Positions 6,915 through 18,474 are shown, counted from the first letter of the stretch. The stretch: 32,000 bases of DNA from Candidatus Nitrospira inopinata (GCF_001458695.1 NZ_LN885086.1:480001-512000); one strand, 5' to 3'. Notes: a model not told the origin generated them from the letters alone. Program-made: numbers and translations.

Positions 6915-7403
6915 ATGAAAAGAACGATGACCGGCCTGGTCGCGGCGATGGCGCTGGCCGTAACGGTGCCGGGTTGGGCGCACACGGACGAATATTTTGA
7001 ATTTGTCGATGCTCCGCATGGCGGGCAGTTGCGCATGACGGGGCCGTTTCACCTGGAGCTGGTCGCCAAAGAAGGCAACCTCACCGTGTACGTCACGGAC
7101 CACGCCGACAACAGAATCAGCGTGGAAGGCGGCCTCGCCAAGGCGACCATTGAGACGGGAGGGACCAGAACGCAGGTGCACCTCCATCCCATCGGCAACA
7201 ACGTCCTCAAAGGGTCCGGATCATTCGTCCTCACGCCGGAGACGGTCGTCATCGTGTTCCTGAAATTGCCGAATCAAGACGGCTATGCCGCCCGTTTCAT
7301 GCCGTTGAAACCGAAGACCGCCTTCACCGGACAGCAACCCAAAGGGGGAGCTTCATCGTCGGACGAGGAGCATCACCACCATCATCATCCACCGAAACGC
7401 TGA
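6915..7403 (+). CDS. Secreted protein of unknown function with C-terminal His6 (paralogue 1)
   Basis: 162 aa with a signal peptide MKRTMTGLVAAMALAVTVPGWA. The core is HGGQ..GPFHLELVAKEGNLTVYVTDHADN and the tail is ...DEEHHHHHHPPKR. The RBS is GAAGGAGG. Confidence 0.7.
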   Translation: MKRTMTGLVAAMALAVTVPGWAHTDEYFEFVDAPHGGQLRMTGPFHLELVAKEGNLTVYVTDHADNRISVEGGLAKATIETGGTRTQVHLHPIGNNVLKGSGSFVLTPETVVIVFLKLPNQDGYAARFMPLKPKTAFTGQQPKGGASSSDEEHHHHHHPPKR

Positions 7404-7428: not shown

Positions 7429-7899
7429 ATGAAAAAACATTTGCCGGGACTTCTCGTCCTCCTTGCCGCGGCGGTATTCTCAACGCCGGCGGACGCGCAC
7501 AAGCAAGAGAAGAGAAAGCACGTCGAACCCGTGAAGGCCTATCACGGCGGGCAGGCGCAGGAAGCGGGGCCCTATCACCTGGAGCTGGTCGCCAAGGACG
7601 GAGAACTGACGCTGTACGTCGCGGACCATGATGACAAGGCCGTGTCCACGGCAGGCGGCAAGGCCAAGGCCACGATTCAGCGTGGATACGAGAAAACTTC
7701 GCGAGTCGAAGTGGATCTGCAACCGGCCGGAGACAACCTGTTAAAAGGAACGGGGACCTTTACGATCAATCACGATACCAAGATCATGATCTTCATCAAA
7801 CTGCCCGACCACGAAGCCCACGCCGCGTCGTTCGCCCCGTCCGGCGCCCAGGCTGGAGACATGCGTCCAAACAACGCGGCCTCCTCGCACAAACACTGA
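7429..7899 (+). CDS. Secreted protein of unknown function (paralogue 2 of 6915-7403)
   Basis: 156 aa with a signal peptide. It shares the blocks YHGGQ, GPYHLELVAKDGELTLYVADHDDK, GGKAKATI, GDNLLKGTGTF and IFIKLPD with the upstream gene. Confidence 0.7.
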   Translation: MKKHLPGLLVLLAAAVFSTPADAHKQEKRKHVEPVKAYHGGQAQEAGPYHLELVAKDGELTLYVADHDDKAVSTAGGKAKATIQRGYEKTSRVEVDLQPAGDNLLKGTGTFTINHDTKIMIFIKLPDHEAHAASFAPSGAQAGDMRPNNAASSHKH

Positions 7900-7938: not shown

Positions 7939-10917
7939 TTACACCTCGTCAGCCGTCACGGCGACGGCAAGCGGTATGCCCAGTGCCGCAAAGTGTTTTT
8001 GGCCACAACGGACTTTGTCGGCTTCGATCGTGCGGAGCTTCAAGAAATCCCTCGTCCCTTTGGTTTCCTTGACCAGATAGACCGTTTCGTCCTCGCGTTT
8101 CACAATCGCCCAGTCCGGGTTGTACTCCCCCACCGGGGTGTCTACCTTGAACCAAGAGGGAAGCTTCACGAAGAGTTCGATATCCTCGCGCTGGTCGAGT
8201 TTCCGAGCAAACTCGCGCTCGACCTCCGAGTCGTACACCACATACTCATAAACGGATTTCTTCACCCGAAGAGCATTGAGGTAATTGACCAGTTCCTCGC
8301 TTTTGAAGAGTACCATCTCCCACTCGGCCTCCGGACCGGTGCCAGGCAGCCGTTCGTACTTGATGCCGTCCACAAGGAGTCGATGAAGTTCATGTTTGAG
8401 AATTCCAGCCACGGCGTCCATGAACCGCTGAGGATTGTTGAAGACCTCTCCAAGTCGGCCGGAGGCTTTGAGGATGCGGACGAGCGTGGAGCGGGTCAGC
8501 TCGGTCTCGTTCTGCAGGTAGGCGAGGATGTCTGGCAGCGCGCGCACGCCGTAGACAGGCTGCTCCTCGGCGACGCTCACGGCCGTCGTGATCACCCCGC
8601 CCTTTGCCACCTGGACTTGGCCTGCGGCGACGTGGATCTTCGGCGCTTCGATCTTCTCCATGCGCTTGATGGCCTCCACCGCGCGCCTTACCAGTTCATC
8701 CGTCTCGAATTCGACTCGATAGGTGGTCTTCGGCTTGATACGATTCCAGAGCGACTCAAATTCCTGGCTGAGTACGACCTCCTTCTTGAGCCGGTTCGGA
8801 CCGTCATCCCGCTCTCGGCGGATGTGCCGCTCGATCTGATACGCAGACAAGAGATCAATGACGGTCGGCGTCAGGTCACGGTGCGCCTCGGGCAAATCCA
8901 GCGTGAAGTCCTTCCGTTTGGGGTCAAATGCGGGCTGAATGCGACCGTCAGCATCGAGCATCTTCTGTTCGACCAACGCCGCGCGGACGGCCTCCGCCGC
9001 ATCCCGTCCGATCGGTCGCTCCACGCCGTCCACGACTCGAGTCAGCTTCACGAACGCCGTGAAGGGAACCTTGCCGAAGGTCACACCGCAGTCTTCCTCA
9101 TACTCGGTCTGCAGCGCGCGGGCGAAGTCCTCGTAGCTCTCGTTGGCCATCACGTAGAGCTTGTTGACCGACTCGTCGAAGACACGCCGACCGGTCTGAT
9201 CCACCGGCAGACGAAGACCGCGGCCGATCTCCTGACGCTTCTTCACCACACTCCGGGTCTCATTGAGCGTGCAGATTTGGAAGACGTTCGGGTTGTCCCA
9301 GCCCTCTCGCAGGGCGGAGTGGCTGAAGATGAACCGGAGCGGCTCGTCCAGTGAGAGCAACCGCTCCTTGTCCTTCATAATCAGGTTGTACACTTCGTCG
9401 TCGGCCTGGGTATCGCCTCGCGTATCCTTGAGCACTCCCTTTTTGTCCTGGGCAAAATAGCCGTTGTGCAGGCGGTCAACCGGTTCCTTCAGCCATTCCA
9501 ACTCTTGGTAGCGTTCATCCTTGGCGAACTCTGACAGCGCCGCCTCGAACGCCACGGCGAACTTGCCCTTCACCGGCTTGCCTTCTTCATCATAGTGACG
9601 GTAGTTGGCCACACGGTCGATGAAGAACAACGACAAGACCTTGAGACCGCGCCCACGCACCTGAAGTTCCTTCTCTAGATGCTTCTTGACCGTGTGTTTG
9701 ATTTGTGCCCGCCAGACATCCTCGCGCAGGCCGCCGATCTGCCCGCCAAGCCGCAGCGTGCGGCCGTTCGAGAAGCGCAGGTACTCGTTGCCCGATTCGG
9801 CGTTGATCTCGGTCACCTCAAAGCCGTCACGGTAGGTCGCACGCTCATTGGAGACCGTGAAGAGATCGGCCCCCTGCTTGACCGTGACGGCCTTCTCCTT
9901 TGGTCCTTCGGGTGTCTGGACGTGGATACGGAGCTTCGCCTTGATCCCCTTCTTATAGTCGATCTGTTCGACGCGCACGAAGGCGTCATTCGCCGCGCCC
10001 TCGACTGCCGCGCTTGCGACCACGATCTGCTTGACCAGCTTCAGCTCGAAGGCGCGAACCGGATCGAGGCGGTAGACGAGATTGTAGGGATTGCGGTGCG
10101 TGGCGGAATATCGCAAGGTGCAGAGCGGGTTGAGCGCCTTGATCGCCTCCTGCGCTTTGTCGGTCGAGTCCACGCTCTGCGGCTCGTCGATGATGACGAT
10201 GGGCCGCGCTGCCTGCACGAACTCGATCGGCTGGCGGCCGGAGAGCTTGTCGCTCTCCTTGTAGATGACGTTGCTCTTCTGCTCTTCTTCCGTGCCGGTG
10301 AAGTTCTTGCGGAAGGCGTCGATATTGATGACGAGAATCTGCAGGGTGTTGCTGGTCGCGAACTGACGCAGCCGGTTGACCTTCTTCGCGTCATAGACGA
10401 AGTGCTCAAAGGGCAGATGGTTGTAGAGCGCGCGGAAGTGCTCGGCGGTGATCTCGATGCTCTTGAGCACACCCTCGCGGATGGCCACGCTCGGCACCAC
10501 GATGATGAACTTCTGAAAACCGTAGCGCCGCGACAACTCGAAGATGGTACGCAGGTAGACATAGGTCTTCCCCGTGCCGGTCTCCATCTCGACCGAGAAG
10601 TGCGGGCAGCGTCGTGACTGGTTGGCCGGGCCGTCGAACAGCTCCCATGCCTCGGGCGCGGCGGCGGGATCGGCCACTTCGATGTCGTTGCGTGTCTGGA
10701 TGGCACGCAGGTTCCGGAGCAGCTTGTCCTCCGCTAGGAGCAGGCGATTGCCCGCGCCCAGCTCCGTGCGTTCTTGCCCGGCGAAGAGGCCACCCATCGC
10801 GCCAAGGTTGATGACGGCATATTCCGGCGCCCCCCGTGGTTGGCCGTCGAAGAGGTCGGTGACGGCCGCGACCGCGTCGAGTTGGAATGGCTGGTTCGCG
10901 TCGAATTGGAGTTTCAC
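7939..10917 (-). CDS. res: Type III restriction enzyme Res subunit (SF2 helicase plus C-terminal PD-(D/E)xK nuclease)
   Basis: The N-terminus V/MKLQFDANQPFQLDAVAAVTDLFDGQP is typical of Res. Walker A is EMETGTGKTYVY and motif II is VIIDEPQS. The C-terminal nuclease signature is EYNPDWAIV...VYLVKETKG. I place the start at GTG 10917, which overlaps the DUF2442 stop as GTGA. The 1080-aa track ORF extends too far upstream. Confidence 0.9.
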   Translation of the reverse strand: MKLQFDANQPFQLDAVAAVTDLFDGQPRGAPEYAVINLGAMGGLFAGQERTELGAGNRLLLAEDKLLRNLRAIQTRNDIEVADPAAAPEAWELFDGPANQSRRCPHFSVEMETGTGKTYVYLRTIFELSRRYGFQKFIIVVPSVAIREGVLKSIEITAEHFRALYNHLPFEHFVYDAKKVNRLRQFATSNTLQILVINIDAFRKNFTGTEEEQKSNVIYKESDKLSGRQPIEFVQAARPIVIIDEPQSVDSTDKAQEAIKALNPLCTLRYSATHRNPYNLVYRLDPVRAFELKLVKQIVVASAAVEGAANDAFVRVEQIDYKKGIKAKLRIHVQTPEGPKEKAVTVKQGADLFTVSNERATYRDGFEVTEINAESGNEYLRFSNGRTLRLGGQIGGLREDVWRAQIKHTVKKHLEKELQVRGRGLKVLSLFFIDRVANYRHYDEEGKPVKGKFAVAFEAALSEFAKDERYQELEWLKEPVDRLHNGYFAQDKKGVLKDTRGDTQADDEVYNLIMKDKERLLSLDEPLRFIFSHSALREGWDNPNVFQICTLNETRSVVKKRQEIGRGLRLPVDQTGRRVFDESVNKLYVMANESYEDFARALQTEYEEDCGVTFGKVPFTAFVKLTRVVDGVERPIGRDAAEAVRAALVEQKMLDADGRIQPAFDPKRKDFTLDLPEAHRDLTPTVIDLLSAYQIERHIRRERDDGPNRLKKEVVLSQEFESLWNRIKPKTTYRVEFETDELVRRAVEAIKRMEKIEAPKIHVAAGQVQVAKGGVITTAVSVAEEQPVYGVRALPDILAYLQNETELTRSTLVRILKASGRLGEVFNNPQRFMDAVAGILKHELHRLLVDGIKYERLPGTGPEAEWEMVLFKSEELVNYLNALRVKKSVYEYVVYDSEVEREFARKLDQREDIELFVKLPSWFKVDTPVGEYNPDWAIVKREDETVYLVKETKGTRDFLKLRTIEADKVRCGQKHFAALGIPLAVAVTADEV

Positions 10918-11252
10918 GGTTCGACCGTCCAGTGTCCCTGCATTCGAATGTTGTCGTACATCGCATCCGGCGCGAGGTCGGCGCCATTGGGCCAGGTGAC
11001 CGTCCCAAGCTCGATGCGGGCCTGCGCAAAGAAGGCCGGGTCCCGAAGCGCCTCGAAGACAGTCCCCGTGACACGCGACGCGCTCAGAAACGGTTCGAGT
11101 CGTACTTCGCCGGCAGTCCCGTCGGTAAACTCGACGTCCAACCGCATGCCTGGTTTGACCGTGACGCGCACAATGCGCCAAGGCGCTGCCGACCCCGGGG
11201 GTGGAACTACTCCAGAGGTGGAATCGGTTTTGGTGGGTTGAGTTGGCGACAT
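10914..11252 (-). CDS. DUF2442 family small protein
   Basis: ...RIVRVTVKPGMRLDVEFTDGTAGEVRLEPFL...GTVFEALRDPAFFAQARIELGTVTWPNGADLAPDAMY matches the DUF2442 pattern (F.DG....vdl....G.vFe.LrDp..F..v.....g.i.WPNGaD..Pd.LY). The start is uncertain (ATG 11252 or an internal GTG). The stop overlaps the res start. Confidence 0.8.
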   Translation of the reverse strand: MSPTQPTKTDSTSGVVPPPGSAAPWRIVRVTVKPGMRLDVEFTDGTAGEVRLEPFLSASRVTGTVFEALRDPAFFAQARIELGTVTWPNGADLAPDAMYDNIRMQGHWTVEP

Positions 11253-11466
11253 AGCTCCCAGTCCTCCATCAATGCTTCCCGGTGTTCAGCAGCCCATTCT
11301 AGCACCAGCGCGAGCGCCCGGCGGGGAAGCGCGCCTCGGGTCACCCGCAGCTCACGGATGTCAATAATCGCCTCGTGCTCCGCATAGACGGCGTGAAAGT
11401 GTGGCGGCCGTGCTCGGCTCAGAACATCTGGATCACAATCCCGAAAAACGTGCTGATCGTGGGCAT
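11207..11466 (-). pseudogene. DUF4160 family gene disrupted by an in-frame TGA and a 1-nt frameshift
   Basis: The minus strand reads ATG..MPTISTFFGIVIQMF-TGA-AEHGR, and in another frame (R)PPHFHAVYAEHEAIIDIRELRVTRGALPRRALALVLEWAAEHREALMEDWELCRQLNPPKPIPPLE-TAG. The span is 260 nt, not a multiple of 3. Adding one C in GGCCGCC would restore EHGPPHFHA, the family hallmark. Confidence 0.65.
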
Positions 11467-11470
11467 CAGG

Positions 11471-11520
11471 TCACACCGTCTTAAAACTCGTCACGCCTTT
11501 GGTTTTGAAGATCTGCACGG
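11471..11520. repeat. Direct repeat copy A (50 bp, identical to 13452-13501)
   Basis: TCACACCGTCTTAAAACTCGTCACGCCTTTGGTTTTGAAGATCTGCACGG occurs at both positions on the same strand. Confidence 0.95.
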
Positions 11521-11569
11521 TATTGGCTTGTGAATGGCCGATGAAACTCGGTCCGAGCCCCACGAGCGG
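11471..11569 (-). pseudogene. Relic 3' end of a second mod allele
   Basis: It reads ..TPPLVGLGPSFIGHSQANTVQIFKTKGVTSFKTV*, against the intact Mod tail ..RVVCLDAGFAGNDQLKANAVQIFKTKGVTSFKTV*. The last 50 nt are identical and the upstream part is diverged. There is no start codon or N-terminal body. Its stop lies 4 nt before the DUF4160 ATG. Confidence 0.7.
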
Positions 11570-11732
11570 AGGGGTTGTGAAAGATACCCCGCTGCTCAAA
11601 TTGCTCGTAGAGCGATGGATCATGACGAAACGCCAAGAAATCGAGATACTCCGACGCGACATCGAGCCCTCCCCCAAGCAAAGGGCCACTGGACGGCTGT
11701 TGTCATACAAGCTGGATAGCCCTCTGGCTTTC

Positions 11733-12476
11733 TCATGCGAGTACAGGCAGTGCTTTCCTTGTCGCAGACAGACGTGGCATCTCACTCCATACCTTATTTT
11801 CCAATAGCCGCCCCGCCCGTTTCTTGTTCGGGCCGCCCCATTGCTTGAAAAAGAACGGCACGTCGGCGCGACGACACTGGTCCCGGATGTCCAGGACCCA
11901 GGCCGGATCCATGGGCCGGGCATGAGGGCCGGACTCGCCTCCGACAATGACCCAGTCAATGCCGGTCAGATCGAGGTCTGTCAGGGGGCCGAGCAACGGC
12001 TCCAGCGAGAGAAATTTAATTGCCGCTCCGGTCCGCCTCAGATGCTCGATCCGGTATCGGTATTCATCGCTCTCGATACTGACGCCCATCCAGATATTGG
12101 GCGTCCATTCAAGCGAGGGACTCACTTCTCCAAGTCTCTCGGCGCGCTTGGTGAGCACCTGGAAGCGATGCCAGTGCGCGCGGCCCATCACGTCGAACAC
12201 GGTCTTGATGTATTCGAGTGGGACCTGTTCGTGGAAGAGATCACTCATGGAATTCACGAAGATCGTTTGCGGCTTTTTCCACTTCAGTGGAAGCTCAAGC
12301 ATGTGAGGCTGGAGCGTCAGTTGGAACCCATTCACATAATTTGGTTGCCCCATGGCCTGTAATCGCTCAGCCATCCGCTCGGCATAGCAGTGCTTGCATC
12401 CAGGACTGATCTTCGTGCACCCTGTGACTGGATTCCATGTGGACTCGGTCCATTCGATGCCAGATCCCTGTGCCAT
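11733..12476 (-). CDS. DUF5131 / phage Gp37-Gp68 family three-Cys-motif protein
   Basis: 247 aa. [33 protein letters not shown] carries a C-x6-C-x2-C motif. Family-typical blocks are [41 protein letters not shown] and FFFKQWGG. Its ATG overlaps the tcmP stop as TGATG. Confidence 0.9.
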
Positions 12477-13381
12477 CAGCGCACCTCCTTGAGTAAATGC
12501 TGTGCGATCTTCAAGGCTATCTTCTTCCCGGGTTCATTACCGACGGCAAAGCAAAGAAGGTAGAGCGGATTGTTTGCCGAGTTACGCAACACGCCCGGCT
12601 CTTCTGCAACACCGGCAAAGATCCCTTTGAGTCGGTTGTTGAAATAACGTCCTATGGTTTCCATTGTAGCCTTGACCACACGCTCATTGTCGTCCCCGAA
12701 AAGTGTTGGCATAGTCTCGACCCTATAGAAATCATCGTACCAATCTCTAGTGCCAAGAAGCAGATCGAGGCGGCGACGCCACGATTTTGGAATATCACCC
12801 GACTTGGTCAGCAGACGATTAACTCCGATCCCGAGCGGGAAGAGCAACCACAGATCGATAGCCTTCGTCTTGGCTATGGCTTCGATCATCCTCCACTCGA
12901 CCTGCATGCCATAGGGGTCAAGAAACAGCACTGCGCGTTTGAATCGCCAATCTGTTGCGCATAGTTCCTGGATCTTGGCGTTCGCATCTCCTTGGCGGAT
13001 GTCGATCTTGTCGGCAAGTCCTGGAAACTCAGCCTTCAGGCTTTCAAGATCGGCACAGCGTTCAGGACTACGTTCGATAAAAATGTATCGATCGAATTGC
13101 GGCTCAATCTTGAGTGCCAGACGAGCAGAGCCATCCAGAAACGACTGCGGTTCAGGCTCTGCCATGTCGGGGAAAAGGGTGTTCTGTGGCGAGTCCTCCT
13201 CTTCTTCACGCCGAGCCTCTCGGTAGCCTGTGCCGGCAAACGCATCGATGTACAGCTTCTGAAAAGACGTCTTCTTTAACGCGGTCGTGTAGCTCTTCAA
13301 GTACTTGGCCAGCACCTCCAGCTTTCGGGTGGTCCATTCCCCGCCAAACTGATGCTCCCTGTCTCTTCGATCATCAGGCAT
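12476..13381 (-). CDS. tcmP: Three-Cys-motif partner protein TcmP (Rossmann/SAM-methyltransferase-like motifs)
   Basis: 301 aa. The N-terminus is [24 protein letters not shown] and the protein lies next to a DUF5131 gene, which defines the TcmP family context. Motifs [10 protein letters not shown] (motif I-like) and VLFLDPYG (motif IV-like) are visible. Confidence 0.85.
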
Positions 13382-13420
13382 GGCCTAAGTCGGCCTCATT
13401 CAGAACACTGACCACTTCAA

Positions 13421-13441
13421 ACTGAAAACTGAATACTGAAA
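13421..13441. repeat. Tandem heptamer ACTGAAA / ACTGAAT / ACTGAAA in the AT-rich mod-tcmP junction
   Basis: Read directly at 13421-13427, 13428-13434 and 13435-13441, inside the 70-nt spacer between the mod stop (13452) and the tcmP ATG (13381). Confidence 0.8.
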
Positions 13442-13451
13442 ACCAAATCCT

Positions 13452-13501
13452 TCACACCGTCTTAAAACTCGTCACGCCTTTGGTTTTGAAGATCTGCACG
13501 G
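13452..13501. repeat. Direct repeat copy B (50 bp, identical to 11471-11520); this is the 3' end of intact mod
   Basis: Identical 50-mer. It encodes the last 16 codons plus the stop of Mod. Confidence 0.95.
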
Positions 13502-15353
13502 CGTTGGCCTTGAGCTGGTCGTTGCCGGCAAAGCCTGCGTCCAGGCACACGACCCGCTCCGGTTTCTTGTCGGCCATGGCCCGGATCAGGTCCAACGTCA
13601 GATCCCGTTCCAGGCAGATGAAGAGAGCTCCTCCCGCTACGCTGTACACGGTTTTCCCCCTCTCCTCCTGGGAGAGGGCCGTGGTGAGGGGAAGCGTCAG
13701 CTTCTGGACCGGCGTGGTGAGCGGGAAGCCGCTTTTGAGCAGGATTTCATAGAGAAGGTCCAGCTCGGCGCGGCCCTCGCGGATGTGGTCCACGTGGAGG
13801 TCGAGTTGCCGGGCCAGGGTCTCTGCATCTTTGGGCGCTTCGGCCTCCCAGGGAGTGAAGTTGGATTCGGCGAGCTTGAAGACTTTGAATCCACGGTCCT
13901 GCGGCTTGGCGCCTTCCAAATCGAGCTTTCCAGCATCTTCATCGTTGAGACTCTTGATGACGCGCCGCACGCGCTCCTTGCAGATGTCGGCGATGGTGGG
14001 GTAGTCCTGCCGCCCTGTAGGCTCTGGAAGCTGAACCAGAATGAACTTGCGATTGCCGCCGTCCTGTTTATTCAGATCGAGGACTGCGTGGGCGGTGGTG
14101 CCGGAGCCAGCCATATAGTCCAAGATGATATCCTCGGAATTCGACCCATCGTTAACTGAAATTGAAAGAAGAAACTGAATCAGTGCGGACGGCTTCGGAA
14201 AATCAAACACATCCTTTCCGAGAAGACCATCCACTTCTTTCGAGCCTTCCTGGTTATATGGGCCGATTAGTAGCGAAAGTGGCTTGGTTTTGCGCATCTG
14301 ACCACGTTCGTCTCGGAGATATTGCTTCACCCGGACGTTTAACTTGCCGTCGGTTTCATTCACGACGATCTCGTCGTTTGCCAGTGCTGCATCGACGCGT
14401 TCCTTTGACCATAACCACTGCTTGTCAGGCCATATCTCTTGCCCTTTCCAAGTGATTGGGAATCGGAGATTTGGTCTCGGATCCTTGCTCCCGGTAGCCA
14501 AGGGTTGTGTGACATAGCCCCCTCGAACCGGGAACTTCACATCTTTGCCCTTGTACTCAGCAATTGCTTCCTCAGAAAGAGGCGCGAGAATATTTTCGAC
14601 AGGCATTTTCGAGTAACAGACAATGTACTCATGAACATTCGAGAATCCCTTGGTAAGGGCTCCCGAGTTGTACTTGTTCTTCCAGACAAGTTGCTCAACA
14701 AAATTCTCCTCGCCAAATATCTCATTTGCCAACTTCTTGAGATTATCGACCTCCGTGTCATCAATGCTGATAAAAACCAATCCGTCCTCCCGCAACAGAT
14801 TCCTCGCCAGATACAGCCGTGGGTACATCATGTTGAGCCATTTTGAGTGAAAGCGGCCGTCCGTCTCGGTATTGGTGGAAAACTTCTTGCCTTGCGCATC
14901 CACCTGCCCGGTGTATTCCAGATAGGTCTGCAAACTTTCGGTGTAGTTGTCGGGATAGATGAAGTCGTTGCCGGTGTTGTAGGGCGGGTCAATGTAAATC
15001 ATCTTGACCTTGCCCAGGTAGGACTTCTGCAACAGCTTCAGCACCTCCAGATTGTCGCCCTCGATGATGAGGTTCTCGGTCGTGTCGAAGTTCACGCTCT
15101 CTTCCAGACAGGGCCGTAGGGTGCCAAGGCTCGGCATCTGGATGGTTTTGAAACACTCGGCCTTCCCCGGCCAGGTCATGCCGTAGCGTTCCTTGCCGAC
15201 ATCCACGGATTCGCCCAGCGCGAGCTTCAACCTGTCGAAATCAATCTTCCCGCCTTCCGTGCGGATTTCCGGAAACAGGCGCAGCAATTCTTGTCGCTTG
15301 TCCTCGGCAATGTCGTGGGAGCGTAAATCGAGCTTGTCGGGCTGGTCGGTCAT
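13452..15353 (-). CDS. mod: Type III-like Mod DNA methyltransferase (beta-class N6/N4 amino-MTase)
   Basis: Motif IV is IYIDPPYNTGNDF near the N-terminus and motif I is LDYMAGSGTTAHAV near the C-terminus, with a long variable region between them. This is the Mod/beta-class order. The start is taken at ATG 15353 (MTDQPDKLDL), preceded by AAGGAAG. The track ORF begins 17 codons earlier. Confidence 0.9.
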   Translation of the reverse strand: MTDQPDKLDLRSHDIAEDKRQELLRLFPEIRTEGGKIDFDRLKLALGESVDVGKERYGMTWPGKAECFKTIQMPSLGTLRPCLEESVNFDTTENLIIEGDNLEVLKLLQKSYLGKVKMIYIDPPYNTGNDFIYPDNYTESLQTYLEYTGQVDAQGKKFSTNTETDGRFHSKWLNMMYPRLYLARNLLREDGLVFISIDDTEVDNLKKLANEIFGEENFVEQLVWKNKYNSGALTKGFSNVHEYIVCYSKMPVENILAPLSEEAIAEYKGKDVKFPVRGGYVTQPLATGSKDPRPNLRFPITWKGQEIWPDKQWLWSKERVDAALANDEIVVNETDGKLNVRVKQYLRDERGQMRKTKPLSLLIGPYNQEGSKEVDGLLGKDVFDFPKPSALIQFLLSISVNDGSNSEDIILDYMAGSGTTAHAVLDLNKQDGGNRKFILVQLPEPTGRQDYPTIADICKERVRRVIKSLNDEDAGKLDLEGAKPQDRGFKVFKLAESNFTPWEAEAPKDAETLARQLDLHVDHIREGRAELDLLYEILLKSGFPLTTPVQKLTLPLTTALSQEERGKTVYSVAGGALFICLERDLTLDLIRAMADKKPERVVCLDAGFAGNDQLKANAVQIFKTKGVTSFKTV

Positions 15354-15555
15354 GGTCTTCTTCCTTCGAGTGTTCCATTCATCATGGCCAGGGGCCAACG
15401 TCATCCAACGGGATCGTCAGGCTACAGTGTCATAACTGCATGGTCGGCCGATTGCAAGGTGAGGGGGCAGCCAATTGAAACCCAGGAGGCCGGCCCATCG
15501 ACCTCGATGAAGGGAGGAGCGAAACGCCGGATGTATCCGTTCAGAAATCGACTCG

Positions 15556-15592
15556 GGAGCGCTCGGATGGCTCCGGCTTCCGAGTGCGCTCC
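15556..15592 (-). terminator. Imperfect hairpin immediately after the SNF2 stop
   Basis: GGAGCGCTCGG (15556-15566) pairs with CCGAGTGCGCTCC (15580-15592) with a 1-nt bulge and a 13-nt loop. On the minus strand it is followed by ..GATTTCTGA, a weak U-tract. Confidence 0.3.
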
Positions 15593-15594
15593 AT

Positions 15595-18474
15595 TCACCC
15601 CAGCGTCCATCGCAACGTAAAGAGCGGCTCTTGTTCCAGCTTCTGCTCCAGCCGCCGGCTGATCTCATCCAGCAAGGCATCTTTTTGCCGGTTGATCTCA
15701 CGCGACGCTTCATCAAAGACTTTCCAGGCCTCGATCCGCTTGGATTCCAATTGGCGCAAGGCTCTCTGCCGTTCCAGCTTCTCCGGAAGGTTCGGCGCGA
15801 GACGGGCAGCCTTTTTCGTCTCCTTAATCGTTTCATCAAGCTCATCGAGTTCCGCCTTGAGAGATATCCGCCGATCCTCGGCCCAGCGATCGAGCTTGTC
15901 CATTTCCAGATCGAACCAGCGGCCGTTGCGGGTGGTGAAGTCCTCGAGGAGCTGACGCTCGCGGGATGCGTGGGCCTCGGCCAGCGTTGCGGCGACGGCC
16001 TCGGGTATGACGCATGACCGCTCCACCGTGGCCGGCAGGTCGAACAGGCGGCGGCACTGAACGTCGTCCAGCGGCTCACCGGCGTCGGTTGCGCCTGCAA
16101 AGAAGAGATGGTCCTCGGTCTCCATCGCGCTCACCGTGAGCCTCACGCAGGCAAGCCAGCCGCTGGTGCCGACGAGGGACTCAAGGATCGCGATCTTCTT
16201 GCCACTGTCGCGGTAGTGAAAGGTGACCTCCGCCGGTGGCGTCTCCAGGCCACGGCCGAGGGCGAGCACACGCTGCGCCAGTGGGTGCCCCACGCGATAG
16301 GTATTGGCATCCTCGGTGCGCCTGCCCATGCGGTACGGGCCGGGGTGAATGGCTTCGCCGGCGAAGGGATTGCTGTGGAGCATGAAACTGAAGTCCGAGT
16401 CCTCGAAGCGCGCGTGGTCGCGCAGCAGGTAGCGGGTGAGTCGCCAGAGGCGCTCGTTGAAGCGGTCGAGCACATCCTGGCTTTGGATACGGACCTTCTC
16501 GACCACTTCCTGATCGAAGTTGTCGAGGAGCTTCTCGCGCGCGTCGCGCTGACCTTCTGCAATCTGTGACTCCAGCTCGCGCTGGAGCCGGTCGAACTCG
16601 AACTGGATCTGCTCCGGCGTGCGGCACTTGTGATAGATCCCTGCGATGCGCTTCTCGAAATCGACGCCCGACTCGATCGCGCCGAGCACCTCGTCGCTGG
16701 CACCGAAGACTCCGTTGAACAGGCGGAACTTCTGGTCCAGCAGCTCGTAGACGCGCTGGTCGGCGGCGTTGGTCTTGTTGAGGAAGTTCACCACCACGAC
16801 GTCGAACTTCTGGCCGTAGCGGTGGCAGCGGCCGATCCGCTGCTCGATGCGCTGGGGGTTCCAGGGCAAGTCATAATTCACCACCAAGTTGCAGAACTGG
16901 AGGTTGATGCCCTCGGCGGCGGCTTCGGTGGCGATCAAAATGGCTGCCTCATCGCGGAAGTGCTCGACGAGGGCCGCGCGCATGTCCGCGCTCGGTGACC
17001 CGCTGACCCGGTCCGTTCCCGCGTGCTTCGCCAACCAGCGCTGGTAGATGGCCTTGGAGGTCTGATCGTTGTTCGTGCCGTTGAAGAGCATGACGCGGCC
17101 GCGAAACTCAGTTTGCTCCAGGAGCCGGAAGAGATATTCCTGCGTGCGGCGCGACTCGGTGAAGACCACGGCCTTCTGCTGGAGCGCTGGGCTGCCCTGC
17201 GCGGCCTGGGCTTCGGCGGCGGCGGCAAAGCCACGTCGCAGGGCCGTCAGCAACACCTCGCCCTTCGAGTTCTTGATGATGGACTTGGCAAGGTCGTGAA
17301 ACTCGCGCAGCTCGGCCAGCTCGCGCTTGAGGTCGGCGAGCTGGTCCGGCGTGAGACGTGCCTTTTCGGTGGTCGTTGCACCGTCCTCCTCCCACTCGTC
17401 AATCAGTTCGTCGAGCTGTTCCCAGTCCTCCGGCAGATTCTCAGGTGGGGCTTCCACGGCTTCGGCGCCCGCCGCGGCGGCCTGGAGCCGCTGCACCATG
17501 CCGTCGAGGGTGCCGGAGATGGCGTAGGTCGAGGAGGCGAGGAGCTTCCGCAGGATCAGCGTGATAAGCTGCCGCTGGCTCACCGGCAGGGCGTAGAGGG
17601 TCTCCCGCTGAAGGTAGTTGGAGACAAGATCGTACAGCCGCTGCTCATCCGGAGTGGGCACGAATTCCTGCACGAGCGCGTGGCGGTTCGTGTACTTGAC
17701 GTACTCGAGCGCCTGCCGACGGAGCGTGCGCTTGCAGAGAGGCGCAAGACGTTCCTTGAGTTCAGCGAAATCGGTGTCGTCGCCGAGACGCGAGAAGCGG
17801 CTGCGGTAACTCTGGAGGTCGCCGAAGGCGAAGTCGTCGATGATGCTGACGAGACCGTAGAGCTCGAGGAGGGAATTCTGGAGGGGCGTGGCGGTAAGCA
17901 GCACTTTCGGGAAGGGTGCAACCGCTTGTTTGATCGCCAGCGCGATCTTGCTCGAGCCCTTATAGACATTGCGCAGGCGATGAGCCTCGTCGATGACCAC
18001 GAGATCCCAGGCGGTTTGGCGAAGGTATGGTTCTTTGGAGCGCGCAAACTGGTAGGAACAGAGGACGACGGCATCCTGTTGGAACGGGTTCAGGTGACCG
18101 GCGCGAATGGCTTCGTTGAAACTGCGGGTCTCGAGGATCACCGAGGGGAGATAAAACTTGTCCTCAAGCTCCTGGCTCCACTGCTTGCGCAGGTTGGCGG
18201 GAAGGATGACCAGGAGGCGCCGCTTCCGCTCGGCCCACTTCTGGGCAATCAGTAATCCGGCCTCAATCGTTTTACCGAGGCCCACTTCGTCGGCAAGGAT
18301 GGCCCCCTTCGAGAAGGGACTGCGGAAGGCGAACAGTGCCGCCTCGACCTGGTGAGGATTGAGGTCAACCTGCGCATCGGCGAGCACGGAGGCAAACTTC
18401 TCCATACTATCGGAGGCGCAACGCCTGGTCAGTTCGTGAGCCAGGTATTTCGCGTGGTAGGGGGTCAGGCTCAT
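15595..18474 (-). CDS. SNF2-family helicase/translocase with a long C-terminal extension
   Basis: 959 aa. Motif I is LADEVGLGKT, motif II is VVIDEAHRLRN, motif III is LTATPLQNS and motif VI is QRIGRCHRYGQ. About 360 C-terminal residues have no recognisable motif and end in a charged, heptad-like segment. Confidence 0.9.
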   Translation of the reverse strand: MSLTPYHAKYLAHELTRRCASDSMEKFASVLADAQVDLNPHQVEAALFAFRSPFSKGAILADEVGLGKTIEAGLLIAQKWAERKRRLLVILPANLRKQWSQELEDKFYLPSVILETRSFNEAIRAGHLNPFQQDAVVLCSYQFARSKEPYLRQTAWDLVVIDEAHRLRNVYKGSSKIALAIKQAVAPFPKVLLTATPLQNSLLELYGLVSIIDDFAFGDLQSYRSRFSRLGDDTDFAELKERLAPLCKRTLRRQALEYVKYTNRHALVQEFVPTPDEQRLYDLVSNYLQRETLYALPVSQRQLITLILRKLLASSTYAISGTLDGMVQRLQAAAAGAEAVEAPPENLPEDWEQLDELIDEWEEDGATTTEKARLTPDQLADLKRELAELREFHDLAKSIIKNSKGEVLLTALRRGFAAAAEAQAAQGSPALQQKAVVFTESRRTQEYLFRLLEQTEFRGRVMLFNGTNNDQTSKAIYQRWLAKHAGTDRVSGSPSADMRAALVEHFRDEAAILIATEAAAEGINLQFCNLVVNYDLPWNPQRIEQRIGRCHRYGQKFDVVVVNFLNKTNAADQRVYELLDQKFRLFNGVFGASDEVLGAIESGVDFEKRIAGIYHKCRTPEQIQFEFDRLQRELESQIAEGQRDAREKLLDNFDQEVVEKVRIQSQDVLDRFNERLWRLTRYLLRDHARFEDSDFSFMLHSNPFAGEAIHPGPYRMGRRTEDANTYRVGHPLAQRVLALGRGLETPPAEVTFHYRDSGKKIAILESLVGTSGWLACVRLTVSAMETEDHLFFAGATDAGEPLDDVQCRRLFDLPATVERSCVIPEAVAATLAEAHASRERQLLEDFTTRNGRWFDLEMDKLDRWAEDRRISLKAELDELDETIKETKKAARLAPNLPEKLERQRALRQLESKRIEAWKVFDEASREINRQKDALLDEISRRLEQKLEQEPLFTLRWTLG

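Follow-up and report, generated by a model that had tools for sequence, protein, structure and literature searches.

The perfect 50-bp direct repeat at positions 11471-11520 and 13452-13501 of the window (the whole 32,000-nucleotide stretch of Candidatus Nitrospira inopinata analysed here) is probably a duplicated 3′ end of the gene mod, left as a recombination scar in a SNF2-Mod-Res operon that has a cargo slot between mod and res. Self-comparison of the window confirmed that the two copies match at 50/50 positions, as a sequence-only reading of this DNA had claimed, that a longer alignment of 57 nt agrees at 55/57, and that the copies are spaced 1981 nt apart. Three pairs of places in the window have 20-mers in common, and this repeat is the only such pair inside the operon; about 1e-21 chance 50-mer matches are expected per 32 kb (~5e8 pairs x 4^-50). 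We confirmed that the repeat is real and present in independent Candidatus Nitrospira inopinata assemblies. A contig of GCA_001458755.1 (NCBI) spans both copies at 100% identity over 10800-15500, as does each of three JGI metagenome contigs, and a chimeric or collapsed join at the 50-mer is therefore scarcely credible, even though short-read de Bruijn contigs (Logan, k=31) end at the repeat. One such Logan contig, L011, runs through copy A with its native flanks, and sequences homologous to each of the two junction contexts occur in other organisms. The features of the locus are collected in Table 1.

Table 1. Coordinates of the operon, of the two repeat copies and of the pieces lying between them (positions of the window).
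Feature	Position	Strand	Remarks
SNF2-family helicase gene (DrmD-like), first gene of the operon	15595..18474	-	Pfam SNF2-rel_dom, Helicase_C
mod, Type III-like (N6/N4 DNA methyltransferase), intact	13452..15404	-	PF01555, PADLOC MTase_III
Repeat copy B, mod 3′ end	13452..13508	-	50 nt perfect, 57 nt at 55/57
TTCAGT-rich spacer, 52 nt, mod stop to TcmP leader	13400..13451	-	without counterpart in compact Mod-TcmP operons
TcmP-DUF5131 block	11729..13399	-	18-nt leader, 4-nt trailer; 1.67 kb
TcmP	13381-12476	-	TIGR04474, PADLOC PDC-M41A
DUF5131	12476-11733	-	PF07505, PADLOC PDC-M41B
Junction filler, 29 nt	11700..11728	-	no match in any fetched locus
DUF2442b′, 3′ third of a further, distinct DUF2442 gene, 5′-truncated	11573..11699	-	
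43-nt piece	11530..11572	-	by position, the res start in related scars
Repeat copy A, orphan mod 3′ end (relic)	11471..11529	-	mod-tail profile, 55/57 to copy B
DUF4160a pseudogene	11207..11466	-	ATG at 11466, CCTG after relic stop
DUF2442a	10914..11252	-	PF10387 49.9 bits; overlaps res start
res, Type III-like (helicase + endonuclease)	7939..10917	-	992 aa from GTG at 10917

The operon resembles a Type III restriction-modification (R-M) system with an additional first gene. Mod matches PF01555 (113.8 bits) and PADLOC MTase_III (E 3.8e-193, residues 23-649 of 650), with NCBI placing its start at 15353 (633 aa); the 50 nt of copy B comprise its last 16 codons and stop, and the 57 nt its last 18 codons and stop. 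Res, encoded downstream of mod, matches Pfam ResIII, DEAD and RE_endonuc and PADLOC REase_III (1013 bits), and its score of 358 bits against NF012027, below the cutoff of 564, places it in a distant subfamily. Both Type III subunits are thus present in the expected order, but the operon departs from the two-gene Type III architecture: ahead of mod stands a conserved gene for a SNF2/DrmD-like helicase, as it does in most related loci. Among the 135 related SNF2-Mod-Res loci that we surveyed from the matches listed, out of roughly 1100 matching stretches, the SNF2 gene lies upstream of mod in 88/135 (65/88 with enough upstream DNA). The locus does not qualify as class 1 DISARM: the SNF2 product scores 686 bits against NCBIfam DISARM_DrmD_b, below the cutoff of 950, and no DrmA, DrmB (DUF1998) or DrmC (PLD) was found in the window.

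Several observations support copy A as a relic of a mod 3′ end, of about 57 nt only. A search with a profile of 66 mod tails picks out 11529-11472 (E 1.8e-15; envelope to 11547), copy A is 96.6% identical to the mod tail of the related locus L015, and in loci L093 and L109 the position homologous to copy A is the end of a real Mod. The stop codon of copy A (11473-11471) is separated by CCTG from the ATG of DUF4160a, which bears out the 4-nt spacing described earlier. Upstream of copy A no Mod similarity was detectable with the 66-tail profile, by ungapped comparison or by gapped alignment. In the next two 57-nt bins, 42 and 46 of 57 positions mismatch Mod when compared without gaps, and the alignment with a two-codon (6-nt) gap, from which a diverged Mod tail had been taken to reach about 11570 (a relic of ~100 nt), contains 26/60 matches (P=0.13 against shuffles), so that the relic has to be shortened accordingly. 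The stretch up to about 11690, which had been offered as a possible older Mod relic, is instead assigned to the C-terminal part (a 3′ fragment) of a DUF2442 gene. Downstream of copy A, DUF4160a is itself decayed: once repaired it matches PF13711 with 72 bits, and relative to the intact genes of L093/L109 it has TGG>TGA at 11421-11419 and has lost 1 nt between 11408 and 11407.

The 1981-bp unit is not one cassette: at least four pieces make it up, and their nearest relatives differ. Its largest piece, the TcmP-DUF5131 block, is collinear with locus L111 (86.1% over 1673 nt) with homology limits at 13399 and 11729, the same limits that are set by the compact SNF2-Mod-TcmP-DUF5131-Res operons of L111, L115/116 and L198. 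These limits sit 52 nt and ~200 nt from the two repeat copies, outside the repeats, which does not agree with the proposal that the repeat brackets a TcmP/DUF5131 cassette as one unit. The block has a GC content of 51-55%, against 60-65% in SNF2 and Res. TcmP (TIGR04474, 211 bits vs a cutoff of 53; PDC-M41A, E 1.9e-133, full length) and DUF5131 (PF07505, 343 bits; PDC-M41B, E 6.2e-124, full length) are adjacent, as specified for the PADLOC candidate system PDC-M41, and their genes overlap by 1 nt. A role of this candidate pair in phage defence is suggested by context: elsewhere it is found on plasmids beside BREX and Abi genes, and in or beside SNF2-Mod-Res operons. PDB sequence searches with TcmP and DUF5131 gave no matches, and a narrow literature search on DUF5131, TcmP and PDC-M41 returned nothing relevant.

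On either side of this block the unit contains shorter pieces. The 52-nt spacer is a repeat remnant: in L019 the mod-res slot contains a 23S_rRNA_IVP gene between repeats, and the left one of these has 83% identity to the spacer over 41 nt; the gap between mod and TcmP in the compact operons L198, L111 and L115 is 14 nt only. Beyond the junction filler, DUF2442b′ matches the 3′ end of an intact 101-aa DUF2442b of L093 (84% nt over 102 nt, E 1.6e-25; 88% over 86 nt), with 22/29 residues identical at the protein level (E 1e-13); the intact L093 protein matches PF10387, and DUF2442b′ also matches the DUF2442 C-terminus of L024. The 43-nt piece (11572-11530) that separates DUF2442b′ from copy A gave no blastn match among the fetched loci and no match to a res-head profile, and its best match to the res of the window is 22/46. 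Because this piece matches no res head, the homology of the scar with those of L024 and L093 is argued from its position and from the DUF2442 fragment beside it.

We examined the mod gene itself and found it to be a mosaic, as is the rest of the locus, each segment of which has a different nearest relative. For the N-terminal part of mod the nearest relative is L015 (85% identity), for the recognition domain (14753-14154) it is L198 (92-98% nt), and the C-terminal part is at most 77% identical to any fetched sequence. The last 57 nt of mod differ from those of L015 at 0/57 positions, compared with 21/114 in the preceding 114 nt, a pattern that would mark an end point of sequence exchange. Nucleotide conservation in general was rejected as a sufficient cause of this identity: third codon positions are free to vary across 69 mod tails (1.0-1.9 bits), and the last 50 nt are identical in 1/2346 mod-tail pairs. 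It is likewise most improbable that the 50-mer owes its identity not to recent recombination but to a nucleic-acid element that is under selection for some function of the mod 3′ end (RNA structure, coupling signal or protein binding site). The protein sequence of the Mod tail is conserved across phyla and the relic retains its stop and the 4-nt spacing before DUF4160a, as such an element might require, but DUF4160a, which follows the relic, is a pseudogene. Moreover, RNA structure was rejected on the basis of folding (MFE -16.6 kcal/mol vs a shuffle mean of -18.05, z = +0.52), an Rfam scan of 10500-14000 at E<=1 returned a chance miRNA match only, and a promoter/terminator scan of 10800-15700 found no more signals than in shuffled sequence, and none in the spacer or the relic.

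Comparison with related loci revealed the state without the insert. In L093/L094 and L109/L110 a real Mod (internally deleted in L109/L110) runs into the same CCTG-ATG junction, followed by an intact DUF4160a and by DUF2442a, with 88-91% nt identity to window 11527-10807 (11527-10871 for the gene pair); for the DUF4160a-DUF2442a block the values are 91% to L093/L094 and 90% to L109/L110. Upstream of the junction these contigs match mod of the window at 13594-13452 (85%), and not the sequence from 11530 onward. The predicted empty site, Mod-CCTG-DUF4160a-DUF2442a, was thus found, in operons of other organisms (88-91% nt), so that the comparison formally fits an insertion here as well as a deletion there. 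The orthologous site lies between the PTPS gene and the AhpC/thioredoxin genes. Two further Nitrospira (L015/L019) have orthologous loci that are 86-89% identical at the nucleotide level in SNF2, Res and flanking genes (87% for the SNF2 gene in L019/L015; 87.5% for res in L015), and their DUF4160-DUF2442 pair is only 52%/38% identical in amino acids to the pair of the window. Relative to these loci the interval from ~15634 to 10917 is replaced. Of the suggestion that the operon was ancestrally mod-DUF4160-DUF2442-res, the arrangement therefore stands, as it exists in L093/L094 and L109/L110, but the pair now adjacent to the relic is not the ancestral pair of this lineage.

The provenance of mod and of its neighbours can be followed in the same way. 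L198 carries the closest Mod found among the matches listed and has TcmP directly after its mod, so the present mod and TcmP-DUF5131 plausibly had a common source in one compact Mod-TcmP-DUF5131 operon. An unrelated origin of mod and TcmP-DUF5131, considered in view of the dissimilar mod tail of L111, is weakened by this collinearity. The earlier proposal that mod and tcmP/DUF5131 arrived together by a crossover in the 50 bp is consistent with L198 as far as the joint origin is concerned, but the ends of the block fall outside the repeat and the unit is composite.

The slot between mod and res is variable across the family, which supports the earlier idea of cassette exchange within an R-M operon: such exchange does take place, and widely. 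The gap between mod and res is shorter than 150 nt in 69/135 of the loci among the matches listed, and cargo of 0.15-3.7 kb occupies it in the other 66/135. RhuM (21), TcmP/DUF5131 (11) and AlbA_2 (7) were found as cargo among the 135 loci listed, along with Fic, AAA_21/DUF4276, GmrSD, PDDEXK and DUF4160/DUF2442. Several slots carry scars comparable to that of the window, each with its own breakpoints. In L093/94 a 61-nt res head is fused to a 79-nt mod tail with the overlap TTGCCGG, L024 has a ~40-nt res head fused to a 67-nt mod tail at CAACTC, and in L095 the two fused stretches measure 18 nt and 12 nt; L112-114 retain a 27-31-nt res-head relic after DUF5131, and L134 has two whole mods in tandem. 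Tandem DUF4160-DUF2442 arrays are present in L093-L095, and the DUF2442 fragment of the window is 84-88% identical at the nucleotide level to the second module of L093. Scars occur in only ~5 locus families vs ~66 cargo-bearing loci. A mod-tail-like match in L042 (30 nt, 83%, profile E 0.02) was weak and was not counted as a scar. To a narrow search, neither the slot nor its res-head::mod-tail scars have been described in publications on the SNF2-Mod-Res family.

Taken together, these results suggest that cargo (TcmP-DUF5131, DUF4160-DUF2442, RhuM, AlbA_2 proteins and others) moves between homologous operons by recombination whose anchors would be two conserved gene ends, the final ~60-200 nt of mod and the initial ~60 nt of res. 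An incoming segment may be added beside the old cargo instead of replacing it, leaving a duplicated end of the flanking gene as a scar; the mod end would thus be duplicated because cargo exchange and stacking are anchored in it. For the window we infer three steps. A Nitrospira-lineage operon would have held two DUF4160-DUF2442 modules with a scar ending in a mod tail between them. A compact Mod-TcmP-DUF5131 segment like that of L198/L111 may then have taken the place of the old mod, of the first DUF4160 and of all but the 3′ third of the first DUF2442. Homology in SNF2/mod would have anchored this segment on the left, and on the right it would have been joined illegitimately just past DUF5131. 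Finally, homologous exchange (crossover or gene conversion) within the 50-57 nt common to the relic and mod would have made the copies identical. The same structure would also be given by a single homologous crossover between a donor that already had DUF5131-DUF2442 fragment-mod tail and a recipient Mod-DUF4160a operon; no donor with the exact right-hand debris of the unit was found among the fetched loci.

The single event envisaged by the sequence-only reading, in which a resident mod-DUF4160-DUF2442-res operon received mod (or its 3′ part) and TcmP/DUF5131 with the right-hand crossover in the 50 bp, so that the relic is what is left of the resident mod, is unlikely. It draws on the existence of the empty arrangement with the same CCTG junction, on the collinearity of the closest Mod (L198) with TcmP and on the sharp end of identity at the relic edge. 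A decaying resident mod, however, predicts Mod sequence upstream of 11530, where none is detectable. Furthermore, the homology of TcmP-DUF5131 stops at 13399 and 11729, outside the repeats, and the unit holds a truncated second DUF2442, 43+29 nt without matches and a foreign 52-nt spacer. The single event would require a donor that already carried this debris and a mod tail, and so it becomes a version of our preferred explanation, the exchange and stacking of cargo at the mod end.

A Campbell-type integration, by contrast, would produce the direct repeats in one step, and we regard it as possible, if doubtful. Here a 1981-bp circle (mod tail-spacer-TcmP-DUF5131-DUF2442 fragment-43 nt) would enter a Mod-DUF4160a-DUF2442a-Res operon by one RecA crossover in the 57-nt mod tail, and the res-head::mod-tail scars elsewhere would be circle-closure junctions. 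This accounts for the scars of L024, L093 and L095, including the microhomology at the fused junctions, it requires the near-perfect identity that we observed, and it predicts a unit length equal to repeat plus insert. Linear DNA with one-sided homology and illegitimate end joining, however, yields the same products. Three contigs (L005/L006/L010) look circular because of a 30-nt terminal overlap, but at k=31 their k-mers all occur in the chromosomal arrangement, so that a circle junction is unreadable there and they are not diagnostic of a circle or a deletion. A site-specific or transpositional element with a target-site duplication can be given almost no weight. The inserted segment is flanked by direct repeats, as such an element would be, yet 50-57 bp far exceeds transposon target duplications, the unit ends carry no inverted repeats and the unit is composite debris. 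Pfam and NCBIfam searches of the unit and neighbouring genes detected no integrase, transposase or recombinase, and neither the remainder of the window nor the +-10 kb around the unit contains one.

It has been previously reported that R-M systems can insert with long target duplications (Nobusato et al. 2000; Furuta, Abe & Kobayashi 2010, PMC2853133), with published repeats of, for example, 44/46 and 47/47 bp, some of them over gene 3′ ends (PMC2853133). On our reading, the N. inopinata locus is a variant of this type of insertion. It has a few-kb insert, direct repeats longer than 30 bp, a single-copy target in relatives that lack the insert, and no mobility genes. By the criteria of Furuta 2010, the repeats exceed 30 bp (50/50, 55/57, spacing 1981 nt), the target is single-copy in L093/L094 and L109/L110 (operons of other organisms at 88-91% nt, not conspecific), and the insert of 1.93 kb lies below 20 kb and contains no mobile-element genes. 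The criterion of R and M homologues within the insert separates the two, as TcmP, DUF5131 and a DUF2442 fragment lie inside and R and M flank them. Published cases concern whole R-M systems entering a genome, whereas here accessory cargo would have entered an R-M operon and the duplicated target is the mod 3′ end itself.

Other known systems resemble the locus in part. Mod is conserved in its N- and C-terminal parts, with its centre replaced; in Nitrospira orthologues SNF2 and Res are kept at 86-87% nt with mod swapped, and the recognition domain is 92-98% in common with an otherwise more distant contig (L198). This is the pattern of Type III mod allelic mosaicism, which arises by recombination in conserved regions flanking the variable recognition domain, and domain movement in R-M genes has likewise been described; unlike in those cases, whole accessory genes would travel here too, and duplicated gene ends remain. 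Accessory genes within R-M operons are exemplified by prrC in the EcoprrI hsd locus and by rlo genes in Campylobacter Type I loci, which similarly place defence or toxin-like genes between restriction subunit genes, although in Type I loci. The tandem, promoterless small modules of L093-L095 and the window, which all point the same way behind a fixed gene and have short repeats between them, recall integron arrays, but the repeats are pieces of flanking mod/res and there is no integrase, attI or attC; neither an intI tyrosine recombinase with attI/attC nor any other recombinase was detected in the window or within +-10 kb. Recombination in the slot is presumably host homologous or illegitimate. 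Homology-facilitated illegitimate recombination, with a homologous anchor on one side and a microhomology join on the other, has been described in naturally transformable bacteria. The 6-7-nt microhomology junctions in L093 (TTGCCGG) and L024 (CAACTC) and the replacement or duplication beside a homologous anchor are similar to its products; we know of no demonstration of this process in Nitrospira.

If our reading is true, SNF2-Mod-Res is a widespread three-gene restriction system with a defined internal slot for accessory defence or toxin-like genes; it was found in Nitrospirota, Planctomycetota, Acidobacteriota, Chloroflexota, Bacteroidota, Proteobacteria and archaeal bins. Ordinary recombination would swap the genes of the slot, giving defence genes a route to hitch-hike in R-M operons without mobile-element machinery, and scars would make the history of exchange readable. 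The uncharacterised TcmP-DUF5131 pair would then be linked functionally or evolutionarily to SNF2-Mod-Res. In N. inopinata itself the finding amounts to local mosaicism and two remnants of pseudogenes, with no evident physiological consequence. We tentatively raise a broader idea, to which we give a minor chance of being correct: the mod 3′ end and the res 5′ end may serve as portable homology arms that make the mod-res junction an integron-like platform free of integrase. Units of mod tail-cargo-res head, possibly circles closed at microhomologies, would be stacked and swapped by host recombination, with the N. inopinata 50-bp repeat still active for loss or gain of PDC-M41.

Excision of the 1981-bp unit by the repeat could occur and is mechanistically possible with Mod left unchanged. 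Contigs with exact Mod, DUF5131 or DUF2442a proteins have the same arrangement only, or are broken at the repeat, and neither a deletion allele nor a circle turned up among them. An exact scan for the 50-mer in a metagenome contig collection without N. inopinata gave 0 matches, which is uninformative on deletion alleles. On the minus strand, the deletion junction would be expected to read ...GACCAGCTCAAGGCCAACG + CCGTGCAGATCTTCAAAACCAAAGGCGTGACGAGTTTTAAGACGGTGTGA + CCTGATGCCCACGATCAGC, and the circle junction ...CATCGGCCATTCACAAGCCAATA + the same 50-mer (CCGTGCAGATCTTCAAAACCAAAGGCGTGACGAGTTTTAAGACGGTGTGA) + AGGATTTGGTTTTCAGTATTC.

The last 50 nt of the working mod (13452-13501, copy B) recur without a mismatch at 11471-11520 (copy A, adjoining the DUF4160 gene DUF4160a), far beyond chance, and the match can be lengthened to 57 nt if two neighbouring mismatches on its inner edge are allowed. 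The copies are spaced 1981 nt apart and form the sole repeat of at least 20 nt in this part of the window. We found 10800-15500 to be 100% identical in a 1.3-Mb NCBI contig (GCA_001458755.1) and in three JGI metagenome contigs, each spanning both copies. Logan contigs (k=31) end inside the repeat, as a 50-nt repeat requires, and one of them, L011, runs through copy A with native flanks. Because independent contigs span both copies and L011 crosses copy A, an assembly artefact is unlikely. The repeat described in an earlier sequence-only reading of this DNA is thus real, and it is a recombination scar.

Genes and debris of the SNF2-Mod-Res operon, in window coordinates
Feature	Position	Strand	Basis
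SNF2/DrmD-like helicase	18474-15595	-	family profile assignment
Type III-like Mod	15404-13452	-	family profile and PADLOC assignment
TcmP	13381-12476	-	family profile and PADLOC assignment
DUF5131	12476-11733	-	family profile and PADLOC assignment
Debris, about 260 nt, copy A at its end	between DUF5131 and DUF4160	-	sequence comparison
DUF4160a pseudogene	11207-11466 (start 11466)	-	family profile and intact relatives
DUF2442 (DUF2442a)	11252-10914	-	family profile assignment
Type III-like Res	10917-7939	-	family profile and PADLOC assignment

TcmP and DUF5131, which PADLOC lists as both components of the candidate defence system PDC-M41, lie with the debris in the 1981-bp unit bracketed by the repeat. 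No integrase or transposase was found in the unit, within ±10 kb, or elsewhere in the window. The pseudogene state of DUF4160a, missed by the sequence-only reading, results from two lesions relative to intact copies in the related loci L093 and L109: the TGG at 11421-11419 has become TGA, and one nucleotide is missing between 11408 and 11407, five codons past the nonsense codon. Both lesions are common to all N. inopinata assemblies. Two Logan contigs (L104, L105) start at 11422, adjoining the nonsense codon, which might reflect a polymorphism. Immediately beyond the 3' end of res, where conservation with the Nitrospira loci L015 and L019 reaches its edge, two adjacent paralogous small proteins are encoded on the forward strand (6915-7403 and 7429-7899); they share 20-mers and have signal-peptide-like starts, His-rich ends and no Pfam match.

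The predicted empty site, mod-DUF4160-DUF2442 without the cassette, was found in other organisms. In the Logan contigs L093/L094, a complete Mod runs, across its stop and a CCTG-ATG junction, into an intact DUF4160-DUF2442 pair, with 89.7% nucleotide identity to window 11527-10871 over the whole of this stretch. The same CCTG-ATG junction occurs in L109/L110, preceded by an internally deleted Mod (88.4% to window 11520-10807; mod tail 85% to window 13594-13452). Homology of these four contigs to the copy-A side begins exactly at the relic edge, and upstream of the junction they resemble the window mod, not the window from 11530 onward; relative to them, the window is longer by 1981 bases and has its mod end in two copies. 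L093 and L109 carry a real Mod end at this position, and the claim that a mod relic adjoins DUF4160 is supported. L109 1-860 (also L110) is itself a decayed operon, with an SNF2 5' remnant, a mod whose N-terminal piece runs straight into its final 143 nt, an intact DUF4160a, then DUF2442a and a res that may be frameshifted (68-aa and 178-aa calls).

A nucleotide profile from 66 mod 3' ends aligned to 11529-11472 only (E 1.8e-15; envelope to 11547). An ungapped comparison with the real mod shows 2 mismatches over the final 57 nt, against 42 and 46 in the two adjoining 57-nt bins upstream, the random level. The two-codon-gap alignment offered for a longer relic is the best shift, yet it yields 26/60 matches (P=0.13). 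Given these results, the relic is essentially co-extensive with the repeat, and the longer Mod relic proposed upstream of copy A was not supported. The “differently framed” stretch LDVASEYLDFLAFRHDPSLYEQFEQRG, which had been suspected to be an older Mod relic, is not Mod but encodes a DUF2442 C-terminus: 22 of 29 residues are identical to the intact 101-aa DUF2442 of L093 (E 1e-13). This fragment is 84-88% identical at the nucleotide level to the 3' end of the L093 gene, and also matches the DUF2442 C-terminus of L024. Neither the 43 nt between the fragment and copy A nor the 29 nt between DUF5131 and the fragment matched anything in the fetched loci. Wherever it is intact, the gene for the 101-aa DUF2442 overlaps the start of res; because the 43 unmatched nt and then the mod tail take this position in the window, the debris looks like a decayed res-head::mod-tail scar, a fusion of gene-end leftovers. 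A profile search gave no statistical support for the 43-nt piece as a res head.

The unit between the repeats is composite. L111, L115/L116 (Nitrospira sp. ST-bin4) and L198 have a compact operon layout, SNF2-Mod-(14 nt)-TcmP-DUF5131-(47 nt)-Res, and L112-L114 have the same TcmP-DUF5131 operon but with a 210-nt gap ahead of res. The window and L111 align collinearly over 13399-11729 (86%), so that the TcmP-DUF5131 block, which starts 52 nt past the mod stop and ends 4 nt past the DUF5131 stop, has its ends outside the repeats; the homology stops short of them, contrary to the suggestion of a crossover at the cassette boundary. Of the 52 nt of TTCAGT-rich spacer (13400-13451), 41 nt align at 83% identity with the left repeat flanking the 23S_rRNA_IVP gene of L019, and the spacer looks like a solo remnant of a 23S_rRNA_IVP-type mini-cassette. 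In L019 this four-helix-bundle gene lies between mod and res and is flanked by two inverted repeats (12058-12093, 12454-12501).

The closest Mod among the fetched loci is that of L198 (87% amino acid identity), whose recognition-domain part is 92-98% identical in nucleotides to window 14753-14154 and whose mod is directly followed by TcmP (85-92% to the window). As this closest Mod is collinear with TcmP, the present mod and the TcmP-DUF5131 pair probably came from one compact operon, in line with the joint origin proposed earlier. The mod parts flanking the recognition domain (14154-14753) are 76-90% identical to L198, and a C-terminal patch (13953-13654) only 50-65%; these differences from the recognition domain indicate fine-scale mosaicism within mod. 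Ancestry is mosaic across the operon as well, and GC content fits such an origin, at 51-55% for the TcmP block and 48% for the centre of mod, versus 60-65% for SNF2 and Res.

Nearest relative of each segment among the fetched loci (nucleotide identity)
Segment	Nearest relative	Identity
SNF2	L019/L015	87%
Mod C-terminal part	any locus	at most 77% by segment; 77-79% in the L015/L019 comparison
Last 57 nt of mod (copy B)	L015	100%
mod-TcmP spacer	L019	83%
TcmP-DUF5131	L111	86%
DUF2442 fragment	L093	88%
Copy A	L015	96.6%
DUF4160a-DUF2442a	L093	91%
Res	L015	87.5%

Third codon positions vary among 69 mod tails (1.0-1.9 bits), and only 1 of 2346 pairs, the window mod and L015, is identical over the last 50 nt. 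These two differ at 0 of the last 57 nt and at 21 of the preceding 114; the calculated chance of 0/57 at the upstream mismatch rate of 18% is about 1e-5. Nothing points to selection on the DNA: there was no RNA structure in the mod 3' end, and no Rfam family match and no promoter or terminator signal at the locus. From this contrast and the lack of selection signals, the identical patch most plausibly marks where a homologous exchange (crossover or gene-conversion tract) ended. The proposed exchange would be limited to the sole sequence common to relic and mod.

Scans with Mod covered at least 80 loci from genomes of many phyla and at least 80 from metagenomes. Among the matches listed, 135 loci have both a mod end and a res start, with SNF2 ahead of mod in most; the mod-res distance is below 150 nt in 69/135, and 66/135 carry cargo of 0.15-3.7 kb. 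In these listed loci the cargo is RhuM in 21, TcmP/DUF5131 in 11 (6 of them fetched via TcmP itself), AlbA_2/HATPase proteins in 7 and DUF4160-DUF2442 in 5; other cargo includes the 23S_rRNA_IVP protein, PDDEXK_3, AAA_21+DUF4276, GmrSD, YhcG and Fic. The orthologous locus is present in two other Nitrospira bins (L015, L019), at 87-89% nucleotide identity through flanking genes plus SNF2 or Res (86-87% for SNF2 and Res alone). Relative to both, everything between about 15634, at the 3' end of SNF2, and 10917, at the start codon of res, has been replaced: mod is 84-85% identical in its N-terminal part and unalignable in its recognition domain, the L015 DUF4160/DUF2442 pair is only 52%/38% identical in amino acids, and L019 has the 23S_rRNA_IVP gene in place of the pair. 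This replacement and the cargo counts bear out the proposal of exchange inside an R-M operon. The finding matters chiefly because it brings to light a cargo slot shared across the family, with scars that can be read, and not for anything unusual in N. inopinata itself. A second variable slot lies between SNF2 and mod, measuring 190 nt in the window (15405-15594) and 1.3-1.45 kb in the orthologous loci (L015 8728-10000; L019 8547-10000); in L096 (6039-9723) it holds HSP70-like and UvrD-like genes.

Res-head::mod-tail scars recur in this family. Two tandem DUF4160-DUF2442 modules in L093/L094 are parted by the first 61 nt of a res gene joined to the last 79 nt of a mod gene, whose profile matches overlap at TTGCCGG; in L095, where these modules recur, the fusion is shorter, with 18 nt from the res head and 12 nt from the mod tail. 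In L024, Mod-DUF4160-DUF2442 is followed by about 40 nt of res head, which meets 67 nt of mod tail at CAACTC ahead of the real Res, and L112-L114 keep a 27-31-nt res-head relic past DUF5131. Since breakpoints differ between loci, these scars are independent events. L134 (691-4444) is a whole-mod version of the duplicated-tail architecture, with two complete tandem mods before res (61% and 59% amino acid identity to the window Mod; tails 86% identical over 401 nt). L124 (5734-6184), with only the first 96 TcmP codons between mod and res and no DUF5131, is a decayed TcmP-DUF5131 cassette. In L112 (9677-9886; also L113, L114) the res relic precedes ~150 nt with three ~14-nt GACTCCTCTCATTT-like repeats and the real res. 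A 99-nt perfect repeat of mod -167 to -69 at the very end of contig L092 (8716-8814) could reflect a further duplication or the assembly ending there.

We propose that cargo modules would be exchanged among homologous operons through recombination that uses the conserved mod 3' and res 5' ends as anchors, and that a flanking gene end would be duplicated when a segment is added instead of swapped. This could proceed from a linear fragment, with a homology anchor on one side and a microhomology join on the other, or from a circle that closes at a res-head::mod-tail microhomology and enters the operon through one crossover. A single crossover with a donor already carrying the debris might also have produced the window arrangement; we favour a staged history, in which the operon would have held a two-module DUF4160-DUF2442 array with a scar, a compact Mod-TcmP-DUF5131 segment would then have replaced the left part of this array, truncating the first DUF2442, and the 50-57-nt patch would have been homogenised afterwards. 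The repeat could still delete the unit and leave Mod unchanged, because the final 16 codons and the stop of mod lie within these 50 nt; no deleted allele appeared among the contigs searched, which could not have shown one.

Among described phenomena, insertion with long target duplication comes closest; it is characterized by no mobility genes, direct repeats >30 bp and a single-copy target in the insert-less genome, with published repeats of 46-47 bp that sometimes overlap a gene's 3' end (PMC2853133). Three of its four features are seen in the window; the fourth differs, since the published insert is the R-M system itself, whereas here cargo enters an R-M operon. Mod and Res are Type III-like, but unlike in Type III R-M there is a third conserved gene, the SNF2 helicase. 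The system lacks DISARM core genes and, unlike an integron, the locus has no integrase and no attC. TcmP homologues also occur on conjugative plasmids, beside BREX with a separate radical SAM gene in L199 (Nostoc plasmid pC052_C) and adjoining Abi genes in L200 (a Leisingera plasmid), and these neighbours fit a candidate defence-island module. The gene order in L200, DUF5131 then TcmP, is the reverse of that in the window.
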